This document shows positions 21,718-44,944 of a stretch of 64,000 nucleotides of DNA, piece after piece. Source of the stretch: Alphaproteobacteria bacterium. Lineage in GTDB: Bacteria > Pseudomonadota > Alphaproteobacteria > RF32 > CAG-239. The position numbers were made by a program, and so were the translations under genes. Location: positions 6,175-70,174 of the forward strand of contig JAFUTN010000028.1 in the NCBI GenBank assembly GCA_017484225.1, given 5' to 3'. Numbering within the stretch: the stretch's first letter is position 1; each line of letters opens with the position of its first letter. The notes beneath the pieces are model-generated. The model was given only the letters and a program-made list of their open reading frames with translations. It did no database searches and had not been told where the DNA came from.

Positions 21718-22488
21718 TTACTCAAAAATCCACTCAATGAGGTTTTCATTATCATCAGATGTTGCCGCATCTGCTTCTTGCAAAGAATAACGTGTGCGCA
21801 AACAATATCCGAAGTAAGAAGAATAATTGTCATTGCATTTGTCAACGCATCCTTCACCGGTTTGAAAGACTTTATTACCGCAATTTAAGCAAACATAACT
21901 GTTACATCCTGCAATTTTTGTGCCGGCAAATGCTTTTTCATTTATATTTGATGATTCATTTAATTCGGCATATTCAAGCAAGTGCGAATTGCGGAAAGCA
22001 TTGTCGGCCAATGTTTGTATGGATGGTAAGTAAATATTTTTCAATTTGGATTGCAAAAATCCGTCAGTTTCAATGGTTTCTACTTCAGGCATATCTATGT
22101 TTGATAAAGAGTAGGCATAAGCAAATGCGTCCATACCGATATCCTTTACATTTTTCATACCTGTCACGGTTTGTAAGTTGGTTGCATTTTGGAAGGCATC
22201 TTTGCCGATATTTACAATATTATCGTCAACAACCAAATGCTTTATTTGTGATAAATTGTTTTCCCAAGGACGGTTTCCGTCACCACAAGGGATACCGTTA
22301 CAATCATAATCAGCCATTGCCACATTTCCGCTGTTTGCCTTTGCATAAACGGTCATAGTGCCGCTTTCATCTAAACGCCACAGGCATGTTCCTTCACTGT
22401 TACACACTCCTGTTGTTTCCGCTAAACCGGAATTAATACCTAAAATAAATAAAATCGGCATTTGTAAAAAAATTTTTTTGCATATCAT
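21718..22488 (-). CDS. Secreted BspA-type leucine-rich repeat protein with conserved C-terminal tail
   Basis: Signal peptide, G.C....C.W.L...G cap, IG.DAF/L..V repeats and a Cys-rich region; ends QEADAATSDDNENLIEWIFE; likely start is ATG 22488. Confidence 0.85.
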   Translation of the reverse strand: MICKKIFLQMPILFILGINSGLAETTGVCNSEGTCLWRLDESGTMTVYAKANSGNVAMADYDCNGIPCGDGNRPWENNLSQIKHLVVDDNIVNIGKDAFQNATNLQTVTGMKNVKDIGMDAFAYAYSLSNIDMPEVETIETDGFLQSKLKNIYLPSIQTLADNAFRNSHLLEYAELNESSNINEKAFAGTKIAGCNSYVCLNCGNKVFQTGEGCVDKCNDNYSSYFGYCLRTRYSLQEADAATSDDNENLIEWIFE

Positions 22489-22522
22489 CTTCAGCACCCT
22501 TTCATAAACTTCAAAAAACAAT

Positions 22523-22762
22523 AAAAAATCCCGCTTAAAAAAACGGGCGGATGTTGAGAAACCATACAAATAACAAGATGGCTCGGCGATTTCGTGCCTA
22601 TAGCCTTATAACACCGACATCCGTCCAGATTACGAACGAATTATCGGTAAAACCGTGATTGCCGCAATTTCGCGGCAGTTATTTGTTAAGGGTTCTCACG
22701 CCCCGGAGTGTGTTTTTTCGCATACTCCGAATTTATGATAGCAAAATTAATCAGCTTTGCAA
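22523..22762 (-). ncRNA. Structured leader/attenuator, copy 2 (C4/CI-like architecture)
   Basis: TTGCAA-N16-TATCAT promoter; box A 22678-22698 pairs with 22555-22574; box B 22617-22626 pairs with 22545-22554; terminator 22530-22547 plus U tract. Confidence 0.7.
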
Positions 22763-22789
22763 ATAAAAAAATAAATGAAAAGCATATTT

Positions 22790-24745
22790 TCAACCGGATG
22801 TTTTAGAGCCGTGCTTATGATATTCTTTCAAGACATTTTCGGTAATTGCTTGCATTAATTCTTTGCCGTTAGCCTGCATTTTGGCAAATGCTTTTTCTTC
22901 CGACTTACTTTTGGTCAGCCACTCCATATCGGAAATTATGTCCGTTTTTGAATCTTTTGCACGCTCAAATCCGTTTTGTAAAAAGTTGCGTGCCAGTTTG
23001 ATTGCTAAAATTCCGGCCTTAGATGTGGCGGCAACAGGCCGCAAACTGCAAAAATTATGTTCATCTTCATCAGAACCGTTATATTTTTTATTATCAGCAC
23101 CAAACATTCTGTTAACCAGAATAAAACGCCCCTGTTTTTCCGGAAAATAGCTGAGTGGAATTATTTTTCCTTTTCCGACCATTTTGCGGATTTGCTGTTC
23201 AAAAAAGTTTCCGTGAGTAACATTGTTGTCTTGAGCGGAAACAATCGCCAGCAAATTAGACTTGGAAACACCCAGCGGACAGTGTGGGCTGATTGCCAAC
23301 ACTTGCATTTGTTTTTGAATAAACAAGCGTTCATCTTCTTTATATCCGAGTTGTTCCATTTTTTGCAAACTCAGCTCTTCAAGTTTTAAAGTCACATACG
23401 CTCCAAAACAGTGCGCCCAAATCTTAAATTTTGCCATTCTGGAGGCAGCATCATTTGTTTCGCGGCGATTTTTGCCGTTGTTTTGAGAAATGCGCGGCAA
23501 AATAAATGTCTCAAATAACTTCCTGATAAACTGTGGGTTCTTTGTTTCTTCACTTATTTGAGAAAAGTATTCGGCATTATATTTTACGTGGCCATAGTCA
23601 CTCATTTGTCTTCCCAAGGCTTTTTTTTCATCAAATAAGTCTCCGAAGTCGTAAGCAACACCATAAACGGAAACTTCTTTTTCCATCCGCAAGTCTTTTA
23701 AAAATTCAAAAGCACGTTTGGCATATCCGTTGGCCGCTTCATCTTTCAAGGCCGTATCACCGCCAATGGTTAAAAAACATATTTCGTCATCTTTAACGGA
23801 ATCAATGTATTTATAATCATAAGGATTCTTTTCTGCCGGATCGGTTCTTTTCCCTATTTGCGCGCGGCTGCCGAGTGATTGTTGGTCATTCAGCAATTTT
23901 GCCGCACTGCGGCGTGATACGGAGTTATTTTCTGCGTATGTTAAGGCTTCTTTGGCAAAGGTTTCTGCCAGAGAGCGAAATTTAGGCAGTTCCTCAATAA
24001 TGGATTCCATTGCCTTGTAATATTTGTTCAGCAGGCTGCTGTCACGCGGTTTACGCTGCACGCGAGCATGCATACAGCTTAAGACTTCTTCGGTTTTTAC
24101 CTCATCAATCACGGCAAATTCAGCCATGGTCTCCATATATTGTTCACACCAATCATTTTTATTTATGATTTTCAGGATATCATCTCCAAGTTCGGTATGT
24201 GATTTAAAAACCGTCGGCAATTTTCTGACAAAAGATTCCGTAAGCGTTGTATCACGCAGCGGAATAGAGAAAAGTTTGTTGAGTAGTTTCACGCATTTTT
24301 CGTCATCTTTAATTTTTGCAATTGCGGAAACGATTTGCAAATTAGTCCAAAAGTTTAAGTTATCTTTATTTTCGTTTAAGTATGCAATTCTGGATTCAAC
24401 AACATTTTCCAGCAATTCCGGATATTTTTTAACAATATTGTCTTGCGCAAACAGTGTAAATGAAAGCGGAAATTTTGTTACATCGGCAGTAACATCAAAG
24501 ACGTCACGATTATTTGTGTGTTCCTGCAAAGTTTCCCAAATGTCATAATATTCTTTTACCAAATCATGACAGTAGTCATTTTTCAGTATATGCACGAATT
24601 CTGTCTCAACATAAGCCGAAAATTCCGGATACACGCGCAGAGATTCATTCATTTTTACCAAATAGCCCTCTTGGCCTTCAAAATCAGCTGATTTGAAGTT
24701 TTCTAAAAAATCTCCGATAAAATGTAATGCTTCAGACTTGTTCAT
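22790..24745 (-). CDS. Hypothetical protein: helical N-terminus plus putative Cys-nucleophile alpha/beta-hydrolase domain
   Basis: TIGGD, WAHCFG elbow-like motif, later SAQD and DEH; no signal peptide; GAGG RBS. Confidence 0.7.
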   Translation of the reverse strand: MNKSEALHFIGDFLENFKSADFEGQEGYLVKMNESLRVYPEFSAYVETEFVHILKNDYCHDLVKEYYDIWETLQEHTNNRDVFDVTADVTKFPLSFTLFAQDNIVKKYPELLENVVESRIAYLNENKDNLNFWTNLQIVSAIAKIKDDEKCVKLLNKLFSIPLRDTTLTESFVRKLPTVFKSHTELGDDILKIINKNDWCEQYMETMAEFAVIDEVKTEEVLSCMHARVQRKPRDSSLLNKYYKAMESIIEELPKFRSLAETFAKEALTYAENNSVSRRSAAKLLNDQQSLGSRAQIGKRTDPAEKNPYDYKYIDSVKDDEICFLTIGGDTALKDEAANGYAKRAFEFLKDLRMEKEVSVYGVAYDFGDLFDEKKALGRQMSDYGHVKYNAEYFSQISEETKNPQFIRKLFETFILPRISQNNGKNRRETNDAASRMAKFKIWAHCFGAYVTLKLEELSLQKMEQLGYKEDERLFIQKQMQVLAISPHCPLGVSKSNLLAIVSAQDNNVTHGNFFEQQIRKMVGKGKIIPLSYFPEKQGRFILVNRMFGADNKKYNGSDEDEHNFCSLRPVAATSKAGILAIKLARNFLQNGFERAKDSKTDIISDMEWLTKSKSEEKAFAKMQANGKELMQAITENVLKEYHKHGSKTSG

Positions 24746-24796
24746 ATATACCTCTTTTAGACAAAAGTATAAGCCTTTTTGTAGAGAAAAGCAATA

Positions 24797-43790: not shown

Positions 43791-43870
43791 CTGTAACCTG
43801 ATAGTTTATTCCGGAACTTTTGTTTGCAATATTAAATTTATTTATCAAAATGTCAATTTATAAATACAGA

Positions 43871-43897
43871 AAAAGGCACTTGTTGTGCCTTTTTTTT
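43871..43897 (-). terminator. Terminator downstream of tRNA-Thr
   Basis: AAAAGGCAC-N5-GTGCCTTTT. Confidence 0.75.
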
Positions 43898-43901
43898 GAA
43901 A

Positions 43902-43977
43902 TGGTGCCGCAAAGTGGACTTGAACCACCGACCTACTGATTACGAATCAGTTGCTCTACCATCTGAGCTATTACGGC
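43902..43977 (-). tRNA. tRNA-Thr(CGT)
   Basis: GCCGTAA-TAGCTCAGATGGTAGAGC-A-ACTGA-TTCGTAA-TCAGT-AGGTC-GGTGG-TTCAAGT-CCACT-TTGCGGC-ACCA; full cloverleaf with encoded CCA. Confidence 0.97.
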
Positions 43978-44065
43978 AAAAACAAGCTATAATTAATACA
44001 GTTTGTTTCATTTTGCAAGAAATTAATGCTTGCTTTCAACAAAATAAGCTCAAAATTTTATAAGC

Positions 44066-44944
44066 TTATTCAAAAATCCACTCAATCATGTTTTCATTAT
44101 CATTTGAAGTCAATTTATCTGCTTCTTGCATGGTGTATATGCGTTTGTAACAAAACCCTCTGTCGGCAACATATCCTTCTATGCAAGAAATCTCCCCGTC
44201 CGGAGAACGATAATCGCAAAAGGCACCGTTATAGTAAAATTCGGCTGTTTCATCACATTGTTCTTTGTCTCTCCGGTGACAGGAAGACGTGTTTTCATCC
44301 CATACGTAAATGCCCGAGCAATCATCCTTTCCGGCTAAAATCATTTGAGATGAAATATCAATAATTGAATAAACACTCTTACAATGGGAAAGTAATTCTT
44401 TCAAAGTGGCACAGGATTCCTCGTTTCCGACGCAGGTTATAGTTAAGTCGGCAATAGAGTAAGAGGCAAAAGCTTTGTTTTCTGTCATAATATCTGTTGT
44501 ATGGTCAGATATGGTCAGATTTTTTAAGTTTGTTTCTTCAAAAGCATATCCGGATATACTTTTAACGGAATTTCCGATAACTACATCTGTCAGCTTGTGG
44601 TCATTTTCAAATGCACCGTGGTCTATACTGGTAACGGAATTTCCGATATTTGCACTCTTCAAGTTTTTTAAACCGGAAAAGGCGTAAGTATTGATATTTC
44701 TAATTCCTTGAATATCAACATAAGATATTGTTTGGGCGTATTCGGAATTTTTCCACGAAGCAGAAGTCATATCTCCGCTGCCGTTTATACTTAAATTTCC
44801 TTCTGAGCTTAAAATCCACTCACAAGTATGTTCATTGTTGCAATATCCGCTGTCAATGATTTCGGCTGCGGCAATAACAGATGATGCAATCATAAAAGTT
44901 AAAAAAAATGCAAATTTTTTAAGATGGTAGACTATTTTAAACAT
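44066..44944 (-). CDS. Secreted BspA-type leucine-rich repeat protein with conserved C-terminal tail
   Basis: Signal peptide, G.C....C.W.L...G cap, IGNSVTSI..AF repeats and a Cys-rich region; ends QEADKLTSNDNENMIEWIFE; GGGGGA RBS before ATG 44944. Confidence 0.88.
   Translation of the reverse strand: MFKIVYHLKKFAFFLTFMIASSVIAAAEIIDSGYCNNEHTCEWILSSEGNLSINGSGDMTSASWKNSEYAQTISYVDIQGIRNINTYAFSGLKNLKSANIGNSVTSIDHGAFENDHKLTDVVIGNSVKSISGYAFEETNLKNLTISDHTTDIMTENKAFASYSIADLTITCVGNEESCATLKELLSHCKSVYSIIDISSQMILAGKDDCSGIYVWDENTSSCHRRDKEQCDETAEFYYNGAFCDYRSPDGEISCIEGYVADRGFCYKRIYTMQEADKLTSNDNENMIEWIFE

Follow-up and report, generated by a model that had tools for sequence, protein, structure and literature searches.

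A portable C-terminal tail on some 90 proteins of an uncultured alphaproteobacterium, tentatively read as a tag for a type IVb pilus system

Two leucine-rich repeat (LRR) proteins encoded in the window, a 64,000-nucleotide stretch of a 1.48-Mb alphaproteobacterial genome (G000), were found to end in the same short tail, a sharing that is far above chance. A search with a 30-column tail profile revealed 92 ORFs of this genome that end in the tail, in every case at the C-terminus (E 2.5e-23 to 1.3e-17). The tail is a portable C-terminal module in which a short helix precedes a free amphipathic β-strand. We tentatively propose that it serves as a C-terminal tag for export or display and that a type IVb pilus system reads it, which we consider possible rather than probable. 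The first-pass annotation had spoken of two LRR proteins with a common tail; the sharing stands, but the two are members of a family of ~92. The tail accounts for the organization of the largest gene family, ~6% of genes, in these small-genome uncultured bacteria. The window features referred to below are the following.

15069..15893, minus strand: type IVb pilin paralogue of the long type, with the Cys pair (Bundlin E 9.7e-9, PilS E 1.7e-8), adjoining neither tail gene
21676..21701, minus strand: perfect 11-bp hairpin, terminator-like, downstream of gene 1
21718..22569, minus strand: ORF of tail-bearing LRR gene 1, stop included, 283 aa from TTG
21721..21798, minus strand: tail 1, last 26 codons of gene 1, RTRYSLQEADAATSDDNENLIEWIFE (E 1.7e-20; G000:C28:27895-27984)
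22488, minus strand: likely start (Met) of gene 1, giving a 256-aa product
22489..22790, minus strand: conserved promoter-like element and ~230-nt leader upstream of gene 1, where 45 paralogue upstream regions align
44066..44983, minus strand: ORF of tail-bearing LRR gene 2, stop included, 305 aa
44069..44146, minus strand: tail 2, last 26 codons of gene 2, KRIYTMQEADKLTSNDNENMIEWIFE (E 6.5e-21)
44944, minus strand: likely start of gene 2, giving a 292-aa product
44945..45301, minus strand: conserved promoter-like element and leader upstream of gene 2, where 23 paralogue upstream regions align

The shared ends quoted earlier for the two proteins are present exactly, with IEWIFE and a stop codon on the minus strand at 21721-21738 and 44069-44086. 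The single span given for the pair (21718-44155) also takes in ~21 kb of genes that have nothing to do with the tail, among them VirD4-like, RND efflux, and rpoH genes. Most of the 92 tail genes, including both in the window, are dispersed, and no pilin gene neighbours either window gene. The upstream element and leader of gene 1 gave no Rfam match at the gathering score. Both products are BspA-type LRR proteins (Pfam LRR_5, PF13306; gathering score 27.7), at E 2.1e-18 and 66.9 bits for gene 1 and E 2.2e-16 and 60.4 bits for gene 2, and each contains 11 Cys residues. By inspection, both begin with a basic, hydrophobic, AxA-type signal sequence (MICKKIFLQMPILFILGINSGLA in gene 1), and the proteins are probably Sec-exported and disulfide-bonded. 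Identity between the two is 25% overall (71/280) and 63% across the last 30 residues. The nearest solved folds to the AF2 model of the gene 2 product (mean pLDDT 82.6) are the BspA-type LRRs 4h09, 4gt6, and 6mlx, with 4oju also among the nearest.

The tail consensus, over the last 24-26 residues, is R-Y-T-L-P-E-A-D-x-A-T-S-N-D-N-E-N-M-I-E-W-I-F-E. Strongly acidic, with a mean net charge of −6.8 across its last 20 residues, the tail lacks a hydrophobic stretch and has Phe at position −2 (...IFE) or −3 (...TFKK), with charged residues after it. In the monomer model of the gene 2 product, a helix forms at MQEADKLT, the last 13 residues are coil (pLDDT ~55), and the terminal strand is unpaired and free of the protein body. 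Among 1.84 billion proteins, the tail profile matched 301 cluster representatives; among the matches listed, the match ended 0-2 residues from the C-terminus in 150 of 150, and no significant internal match was found in the profile searches. No Pfam or NCBIfam model matched the tail, and a literature search returned no paper text on it. Of the three findings that the annotation had named as refuting its reading, none was obtained: the tail extends beyond two paralogues, is never internal, and resembles no described domain. As that reading foresaw, it is a self-contained unit that occurs on unrelated passengers and only at their ends. LRR_5 is borne by 71 of the 90 regex-defined tail ORFs of G000, the remainder being Cys-rich or without a Pfam family. 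Passengers overall comprise LRR, Cys-rich-only, YD-like, and bare-linker proteins: a YD-repeat-like protein of genome G065 and non-LRR proteins of G514 carry it, while in G453 and G451 it occurs on an 84-86-aa mini-protein composed of a signal peptide, a Ser/Gly linker, the tail, and nothing else.

Several known classes of terminal signal were considered and rejected. The type IX secretion (T9SS) C-terminal domain is a folded β-sandwich of ~70-100 residues in Bacteroidota, and BspA of T. forsythia carries it. Like the tail, it marks the C-termini of many exported proteins that are otherwise unrelated, BspA-type LRR proteins included; the T9SS-like reading suggested earlier is nevertheless not supported, since the tail has ~25 residues and TIGR04183 (Por_Secre_tail) matched neither LRR protein at E <= 1. 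A genome-wide TIGR04183 search of G000 also gave no match, though its search controls gave none either. Autotransporters (T5SS) were dismissed, as the annotation had done, the PF03797 barrel being absent from both LRR proteins; the three such barrels of G000 belong to different ORFs (1348-2060 aa). Exosortase, sortase, and rhombosortase tags (PEP-CTERM, LPXTG, GlyGly-CTERM) combine a signature motif, a hydrophobic transmembrane helix, and a basic end with an encoded cognate sortase; the acidic tail without a hydrophobic stretch does not fit, and no exosortase was found in G000. A BAM β-signal is a terminal strand that belongs to a barrel and ends in an aromatic residue, whereas the tail proteins have no barrel domain, a charged last residue, and Phe at −2 or −3. 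Nor are the tail proteins type IV pilins, which are defined by a class III leader with G(−1) and E(+5) and an N-terminal hydrophobic α1 helix: their N-termini are of the Sec type, and only the last ~26 residues align to pilins.

Strong selection on the tail at the protein level follows from several observations. The 88 full-length copies of G000 represent 88 distinct DNA versions and 39 peptide versions; pS is 0.656 and pN 0.083; and among 76 paralogues, the number of partners with DNA homology falls from ~70 to ~8 exactly at the stop codon. Invariant residues are encoded by freely varying synonymous codons, as is seen for Ser-13 (TCT 26, AGT 26, AGC 14, TCA 19, TCC 3). The same data make it very improbable that the peptide is functionless and that conservation acts on the DNA, the 3′ end being homogenized by gene conversion or used as a recombination arm when cassettes are shuffled. 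Mosaicism of passenger and tail between species and conservation at both gene ends, leader and tail, would suit such an explanation. It appears, however, to be largely refuted already: all 88 tails differ in DNA with synonymous sites near saturation, both TCN and AGY codons serve for Ser, and homology stops at the stop codon and not within flanking DNA.

The tail type differs between species. Tails of the ...IEWIFE type number 92 in G000, and ...VTITFKK tails number 82 in the sister species G063. Sixteen of 88 G000 passengers have their nearest relative among the ...ITFKK-tailed proteins and not among the G000 paralogues; one of them has 70% identity over 305 aa to such a protein, with its best G000 paralogue at 35%. 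Among representatives, 40 of 127 passengers were nearer to a protein of the other tail type. As judged from these comparisons, the tail is species-matched although passengers are shared between species. Tails occur in 5 of 50 genomes of the genus and the secretin cluster in 48 of 50, i.e., it is core, and co-occurrence therefore gives no signal for the pilus machine. G000 encodes one secretin, which lies within a T4bP-like cluster with TcpQ, PilO, T2SSE, and T2SSF.

The resemblance that points to pili lies at the C-termini of type IVb pilins. When a profile of 18 tails was compared with one of 14 long-pilin C-termini by hhalign, 26 columns aligned and stayed in register up to the final residues (probability 86%, P 5.1e-6). 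The tail corresponds to the last 26-27 residues of the long pilins of this bacterial family, with T, S, or L of the tail opposite the invariant pilin Cys. The pilins match Bundlin (PF05307) and PilS (PF08805) above cut-offs, and a pilin of another genus ends in the tail-like ...ACSNDDDNTIEWVFF (E 9.6e-4). In both pilin C-terminus and tail, a helix is followed by a terminal strand. In an AF2 model of a long pilin, the tail-aligned segment forms helix 204-210 and sheet strand 218-224 (pLDDT 81-86); in the LRR protein model, the pilin-aligned helix forms, and the strand is unpaired (pLDDT ~55). The earlier idea of strand donation gains some support here, in that the terminal strand, which the monomer model leaves free, aligns with the last pilin β-strand. 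Differences from pilins are that the tail proteins have a Sec signal peptide in place of the class III leader and α1 helix, and that the rest of each protein is made of LRR or Cys-rich modules. The putative homology of tail and pilin is only moderate: a pilin-C-terminus HMM run against all G000 ORFs recovered tails only at E 3.6-7.5, a broad tail HMM matched pilins at E 0.016, 2.5, and 6.7, and within G000 or G063, local pilin C-termini do not resemble local tails.

Besides the long pilins there are short ones of 142-165 aa, in which both Cys residues and the last ~60 residues are missing; they lack exactly the C-terminal segment to which the tail aligns. Among 150 matches listed in a separate search, complete short-pilin frames were seen only in the tail-bearing species G000, G010, and G063. 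Of nine low-copy tail loci that could be evaluated, four have a short pilin next to the tail gene: one in G065 (15 nt away), two in G453 (20 nt each), and one in G513. G000 adds a further locus, at which its sole short pilin and a tail gene converge, with their stops 46 nt apart. Since one long pilin of G000 (on contig C37) is likewise convergent with a tail gene, at 55 nt, adjacency in this genome is near chance (estimate, p ~0.05). The other five low-copy loci have no pilin neighbour, the short pilins of G063 and G010 do not adjoin a tail gene, and no tail gene was found in 20 loci centred on long pilins (63 kb). The short pilin evolves fast, G000 and G063 sharing only 46% identity in it; in the secretin they share 83%, and in VirD4 91%. 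New here are the in-register alignment of the tail with pilin C-termini and the position of tail genes beside short, cysteine-less pilins.

To our knowledge, substrate choice by type IV pili and type II secretion systems is poorly understood, and the only defined signals for such substrates are those of TcpF and CofJ, with a single cargo each. According to our proposal, the tag would have descended from the C-terminal helix and strand of the lineage's type IVb pilins and would be read by the pilus system in the periplasm. The most likely reading step would be docking of the terminal strand on the short, cysteine-less pilin that misses exactly the tag segment; cargo could then pass through the secretin and be displayed on the pilus or released from it. 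Binding to pilin, secretin passage, and surface display of the tagged proteins are thus what we infer, beyond the alignment and gene neighbourhood shown above. Completion of a pilus subunit's incomplete fold by the terminal β-strand of another protein occurs in donor-strand complementation (chaperone-usher and type V pili), though the donor there is itself a pilin; we know of no type IV pilin completed in trans.

The proposed mode would be akin to that of TcpF (Vibrio cholerae TCP) and CofJ (ETEC CFA/III), which are described as secreted by type IVb pili through disordered export signals that bind a minor pilin (PMC10120004, PMC9565799, PMC6048534), that of TcpF being N-terminal and specific for its own pilus (PMC10120004). 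Like these signals, the tail is short, disordered, and located at one end of a Sec-exported protein; also common to them are portability to other cargo, specificity for the autologous pilus and reading by a pilin (for the tail, both as proposed), and a T4bP-type machine, encoded here in G000. The tail differs in being C-terminal, in having ~90 cargoes per genome instead of one, in resembling the pilin's own C-terminus, and in its proposed partner, a truncated pilin and not a tip minor-pilin trimer. Another large, dispersed family of BspA-type LRR proteins with conserved C-termini is that of Trichomonas vaginalis, where the authors suggested that C-terminal motifs conserved within subfamilies devoid of a transmembrane domain could act as anchors; that organism is a eukaryote, the motifs are [TS]CK, SCHIA, and TCQCR, and there is no link to pilins (PMC2843621).

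Three other functions of the peptide have to be weighed. It is somewhat unlikely that another envelope factor, such as an outer-membrane receptor or scaffold, BAM, or LPS bound directly through cation bridges, reads the tail for sorting or anchoring, the pilin resemblance being mere ancestry or coincidence. Modularity, terminal position, selection, and species matching would suit any dedicated reader; the acidity of the tail and its alternating hydrophobic end strand, which is like outer-membrane β-signals, fit as well, and many G000 ORFs, including six around VirD4 in the window that lack a Pfam match, belong to no family. Yet no candidate reader gene was found, and a core reader like BamA would not predict the flip from ...IEWIFE to ...ITFKK between sister species. 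Nor is an outer-membrane barrel supported as the reader: G000 encodes a single Omp85, with no second copy of the TamA or TpsB type found, and no partner was identified; an accessory pair beside gene 2 (MBOAT and DHHW/AlgX-like) is present in 15 of 50 genomes, tail-less ones included.

Self-association, in which helix-strand units pair and ~90 paralogues homo- or hetero-oligomerize into a combinatorial surface coat with no separate reader, appears unlikely. The unpaired, low-confidence strand of the monomer model would be available for it, a need for mutual compatibility would explain uniformity within and divergence between genomes, and the tail-only mini-protein could serve as a cap or competitor. 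It leaves unexplained the crossing of the outer membrane, the short-pilin neighbourhood, and the in-register pilin match, and a genome with a single tail gene (G065) exists. Quite unlikely, too, is a tail without a partner, a pilin fragment that came to cap the Cys-rich stalk of its own molecule or to act in the periplasm as a signal for quality control or proteases. Where Cys-rich modules occur, the tail always follows the last of them, and C-termini are recognized by tail-specific proteases and PDZ proteins; but the tail is also found on proteins without such a stalk, the Ser/Gly-linker mini-protein among them, its last 13 residues are unpacked against the body in the model, and a mere cap need not be species-matched while passengers are shared.

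A more specific form of the pilus-read tag, which we hold with considerable doubt, is that a type IVb pilin gene was split in an ancestor of this bacterial family, and that its severed C-terminus became the tag, which re-completes the fold of the short pilin in trans (split-pilin strand complementation) and so loads cargo. The pilin body would persist as the short, cysteine-less pilin, and the severed helix and strand would have become a free-standing 25-residue tag, appended to any Sec-exported protein; up to ~90 LRR or Cys-rich adhesins per genome would then be loaded on type IV pili or pushed through the secretin. Short-pilin adjacency and tail similarity could, on the other hand, merely record an old pilin gene fission without present interaction. 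If the tag is read as proposed, a 25-residue species-specific signal together with a candidate receptor, the truncated pilin, makes substrate recognition directly testable, and the tail offers a compact display or export tag. Sister species, with whole pilin genes expanded to 40-95 paralogues, would achieve in cis what the tag does in trans, and surface variation among related species would follow either of two routes that can replace each other, through LRR proteins with the tag or through an expanded set of pilins.

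Both C-termini quoted in the first-pass annotation are present in the window exactly as it gave them, with IEWIFE followed by a stop codon at 21721–21738 and 44069–44086 on the minus strand. The span that it marked, 21718–44155, also takes in about 21 kb of unrelated genes. The two genes are:

21718–22569, minus strand: tail gene 1 (likely start 22488)
44066–44983, minus strand: tail gene 2 (likely start 44944)

Read from the likely starts, both N-termini are basic and hydrophobic with an AxA motif and, by inspection, look like typical export signals. A Pfam search found a BspA-type LRR_5 domain in both proteins, and each contains 11 Cys residues. 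Their identity is 25% overall and 63% over the last 30 residues. The conserved C-terminal ~25 residues (the "tail", the rest of the protein being the "passenger") are covered in both proteins by no Pfam or NCBIfam model at E ≤ 1.

The genome that holds the window, G000, comes from an uncultured organism (1.48 Mb, 57 contigs, 39% GC) and contains many more such genes. A six-frame regular-expression search yielded 90 ORFs ending with the tail, 88 of them full-length (184–513 aa), while a 30-column profile (A1) yielded 92 matches. LRR_5 was present in 71 of the 90 ORFs. When 12 further tail ORFs were scanned against Pfam, one contained LRR_5, one a weak LRR_5 and one a sub-threshold furin-like Cys-rich match; the other nine had no meaningful family. 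Thus, the passengers of the tail are of more than one kind. In single-linkage BLAST clustering, shared stalk modules linked 86 of the 88 full-length proteins into one cluster.

The tail was then sought in other genomes. The G000-type profile matched 2 of 61 relatives, namely G000 itself and one weak match with a variant tail, ...RWTPAEAAEVLNDDDNNTVTLIFKM. A variant profile (A2) matched 5 of 50 genus genomes; the copies besides those in G000 numbered 82 in the sister species G063, two in G010, and one each in G008 (at a contig edge) and G065. With a merged profile (A4), one of 401 genomes sampled across the class matched, and this was G000. Across the order, tail matches were obtained in 9 of 283 genomes, representing 4 of 24 genera. 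A search of 1.84 billion cluster representatives returned 301 proteins at E ≤ 1e-3 (73 at E ≤ 1e-10); the match ended 0–2 residues from the C-terminus in all 150 proteins listed, and no significant internal match was found in this search. Variants from other genera end an LRR protein (...SYTIQEANEATHEGNDNTITFSW), a non-LRR protein (...RFTPPEASVFMTDDGNNSVTITF), and a protein of 84–86 aa that consists of a signal peptide, a Ser/Gly linker and the tail, and nothing else (...KYSVSEAEAASTDGSTNSVSWTFE). The tail had no match in Pfam, NCBIfam, ESM Atlas clusters or the text of papers: ESM Atlas returned nothing usable by features for the tail region and only structural rows with TM < 0.5, and the tail motif strings gave two spurious OCR matches in paper text. 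None of the three outcomes by which the first-pass annotation would have been refuted was observed: the tail extends beyond the two paralogues, has no significant internal match, and matches no described domain. Conserved C-termini with other motifs are known on BspA-like proteins in Trichomonas, according to PMC2843621; the present analysis adds the species-matching test, the wider set of tail variants and the link to pilins. In one of the other genera (G513), an LRR tail gene (L108 1257–1946, plus strand) lies inside the ribosomal protein cluster, flanked by an rplO-like and a secY-like gene.

Uniform tails could, in principle, be produced by homogenisation acting purely on DNA. Such an origin is extremely improbable, being contradicted by codon usage, by substitution patterns and by the point at which homology ends. 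Among the 88 genes, synonymous codons vary freely at invariant tail residues: Ser at −13 is encoded by TCT (26), AGT (26), AGC (14), TCA (19) and TCC (3), and all four Ala codons are in use at −18. For the last 24 codons, the values are pS 0.656 and pN 0.083, and the 88 genes have 88 distinct tail DNA sequences but only 39 tail peptides. DNA homology of 76 paralogues starts ~70 nt 5′ of the stop codon, and the number of homologous partners drops from ~70 to ~8 exactly at the stop. These data speak for purifying selection on the tail peptide, and against recent gene conversion or a conserved DNA site downstream.

An AF2 model of the mature gene 2 protein (292 aa, mean pLDDT 82.6) shows an LRR solenoid, Cys-rich hairpins, a helix at residues 272–279 (MQEADKLT), and a final 13-residue coil with pLDDT of ~55. 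The closest solved folds are the BspA-type LRR proteins 4h09, 4gt6 and 4oju, and TpLRR 6mlx. From the predicted helix and the low-confidence terminal coil, the tail would seem to consist of a short helix and an unpaired amphipathic strand, with I, W and F on one face, awaiting a partner.

Passengers were compared after the last 30 residues had been cut. The best passenger match carried the other major tail type in 40 of 127 representatives, a figure inflated by clustering at 50%. In the complete G000 set, 16 of 88 passengers were nearer to a protein with the ...ITFKK tail, the type found in G063, than to any G000 paralogue; one was 70% identical over 305 aa to an ...ITFKK-tailed protein versus 35% to its best paralogue. 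Judged by these alignments, passenger lineages are common to different species, by descent or transfer, and each copy bears the tail of its own genome. Because passengers are shared while tails are genome-specific, the result suggests a constraint on the tail to match some other product of its own genome, or the other tails. The second alternative, an association of tails with one another, agrees with the species matching, and we consider it improbable.

Three independent observations (gene neighbourhood, the type of pilin involved, and sequence) point to type IV pilins as the candidate partner. A pilin gene neighbours the tail gene at four of nine evaluable low-copy tail loci, with three more loci, cut by contig ends, standing outside the nine. 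In G065, the pilin gene begins 15 nt after the sole tail gene; in G453, a pilin gene ends 20 nt upstream of each of the two genes for tail-only mini-proteins; and G513 has three tail genes, one of them immediately behind a pilin gene. In G000, the short pilin gene (C13 6697–7158) and a tail gene point towards each other, with 46 nt between their stops. The loci of the tail-only proteins include:

L088 1498–1758, minus strand: tail-only mini-protein, 84–86 aa
L110 1519–1773, minus strand: tail-only mini-protein of the 84–86-aa type

L089 is a further locus for these proteins. In G453 the pilin gene upstream of the mini-protein is a short one, and a tail-only protein of this size also occurs in G451. 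The pilins that neighbour tail genes are short (142–165 aa), have no Cys, and stop ~60 residues before the long pilins do (alignments A5 and A6); thus, the second Cys is missing, as are the helix and strand at the C-terminus. Matches to Bundlin and PilS assign them to the type IVb pilins. In a genus-wide search with the head of the G000 short pilin, complete short frames were seen only in G000, G010 and G063 among the 150 matches listed, with 292 matches beyond these. No tail gene turned up in 63 kb made up of 20 loci with a long pilin at the centre; a counter-example is a G000 long pilin (contig C37) that is convergent with a tail gene at 55 nt. Tail genes have no synteny between species. The YccA-like orthologue has no neighbouring tail gene in G063, G010, G020, G030 or G070, and a TolC-like locus has a tail gene in G000, a short pilin in G063 and G010, and no pilin in G070, G030 or G022.

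When a profile built from 18 tails of four genera in the family was aligned with one built from 14 long-pilin C-termini, the probability was 86% (P 5.1e-6); the 26 aligned columns keep in register up to the final residues, and the invariant Cys of the pilins stands opposite T/S/L of the tail. The C-terminus of one pilin from another genus reads ...ACSNDDDNTIEWVFF. AF2 modelled the aligned segment of one long pilin (mean pLDDT 74.9) as a helix (204–210) and a strand (218–224) with pLDDT of 81–86. By HMM searches in local databases, the putative homology is marginal: the pilin C-terminus HMM scored G000 tails at E 3.6–7.5, and a broad tail HMM scored pilins at E 0.016, 2.5 and 6.7. The ends of the pilins of G000 and G063 themselves are not similar to the tails of the respective genome. 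The HMM scores and these unlike pilin ends temper the pilin link. The short pilin of G063 shares 46% identity with that of G000 and 56% with that of G010; for comparison, identity is 83% for the secretin and 91% for VirD4. Such rapid divergence would leave room for the short pilin to co-evolve with the tail, but pilins are fast-evolving in any case.

Species without tails often have greatly expanded pilin families. Expansions are seen in G453 (95 matches), G025 (at least 89), G020 (43) and G064 (33), the last three being counts of head matches; G000, G063 and G010 have 4–6. Loci L097 and L102 belong to these expansions. G025, G020 and G064 have no tail, and G453 has two mini tail genes. This suggests that tails and pilin expansions are two alternative routes to surface variation, with numbers too few for a test. 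The large type IVb pilin expansions sit in small genomes of the same family. A 1208-aa ORF of G000 (C10:31677–35303, locus L094) belongs to no Pfam family but starts like a pilin (KGGLMIEALAMLGLIAVV); it could encode a tip protein or a minor pilin of giant size.

The envelope machines of G000 comprise one Omp85 protein, two TolC-type proteins, three classical autotransporters, all encoded elsewhere in the genome, and one secretin; no exosortase was found in the genome. A genome-wide search with the T9SS tail model gave no match, and controls were likewise silent. The secretin gene is part of a cluster resembling that of a type IVb pilus (TcpQ, secretin, PilO, T2SSE, T2SSF), which adjoins VirB4 and three VirB2 genes. 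Of 50 genus genomes, 48 encode the secretin and 48 a VirD4-like coupling protein; because both are core, presence and absence cannot tie either to the tail. In the window, the VirD4-like gene (26763–28976) lies among six ORFs of 165–651 aa without a Pfam or NCBIfam family (22790–33300, minus strand). VirD4 identity across the genus is 85–91%, and from its core status the region would appear to encode a resident type IV secretion system, some of whose components are unrecognised. Apparent Sec signal peptides and 8–30 Cys per protein would argue against cytoplasmic routes, and hence against C-terminal signals of the T4SS, T1SS or T2SS-like kind. Next to tail gene 2 are found:

41049–43790, minus strand: DltB/AlgI-like MBOAT and DHHW/AlgX-like SGNH protein, an O-acyltransferase pair adjoining tail gene 2
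43905–43977: tRNA, beside tail gene 2 and the O-acyltransferase pair

The DHHW/AlgX-like partner looked promising as a reader in five genomes and was rejected when 15 of 50 proved to have it, tail-less ones included; the pair is accessory.

We conclude that the tail very probably functions as a portable C-terminal tag for interaction or sorting. For the tail and pilin observations together, the simplest account would have two steps. A pilin gene would have split, its body becoming the short pilin and its severed end a portable tag; the tag would still dock on the pilin, so that the type IVb pilus could take tagged proteins through the secretin, to be displayed or released. A precedent is TcpF, a single cargo protein of a type IVb pilus, whose signal is described in PMC10120004 as specific for its own pilus and as binding the minor pilin TcpB. 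The pilus-linked reading is tentative, though a serious possibility. Reading by another envelope component, or direct anchoring in the outer membrane, seems rather doubtful, and a role as a cap or quality-control signal is unlikely.

Upstream, ~300 nt of sequence are common to 78 of 83 tail genes, with a TTTGCA...TATCAT that resembles a promoter and a ~230-nt leader rich in hairpins. Alignment of the upstream regions places these in the window at:

22489–22790, minus strand: conserved promoter-like element and leader of gene 1
44945–45301, minus strand: conserved promoter-like element and leader of gene 2

The leader matched nothing in Rfam at gathering score, its weak matches lying far below. 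An invertible promoter at the two tail genes of the window, considered with an Mpi-family invertase also encoded there, was rejected, as no inverted repeats flanking the conserved leaders were found. A REP-like repeated element (GTCATCTTGAGGGA...CCCACGTCGCTACGC...GGAATGAC) stands just 3′ of the stop in a subset of G000 tail genes, e.g., on contigs C9, C16 and C19. Other features of the window are:

11681–12718, minus strand: ORF matching Pfam Mito_fiss_Elm1 (E 3e-69), a family named for a mitochondrial fission protein
49551–51137, plus strand: large tyrosine recombinase
58726–59361, plus strand: Mpi-family "master DNA invertase" serine recombinase (E 5e-81)
60249–63953, low-GC window end (30% GC): Dcm-type methyltransferase fragment, Fic-domain protein and TIGR04141 "sporadically distributed" protein

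The last of these regions looks like a mobile or defence islet.
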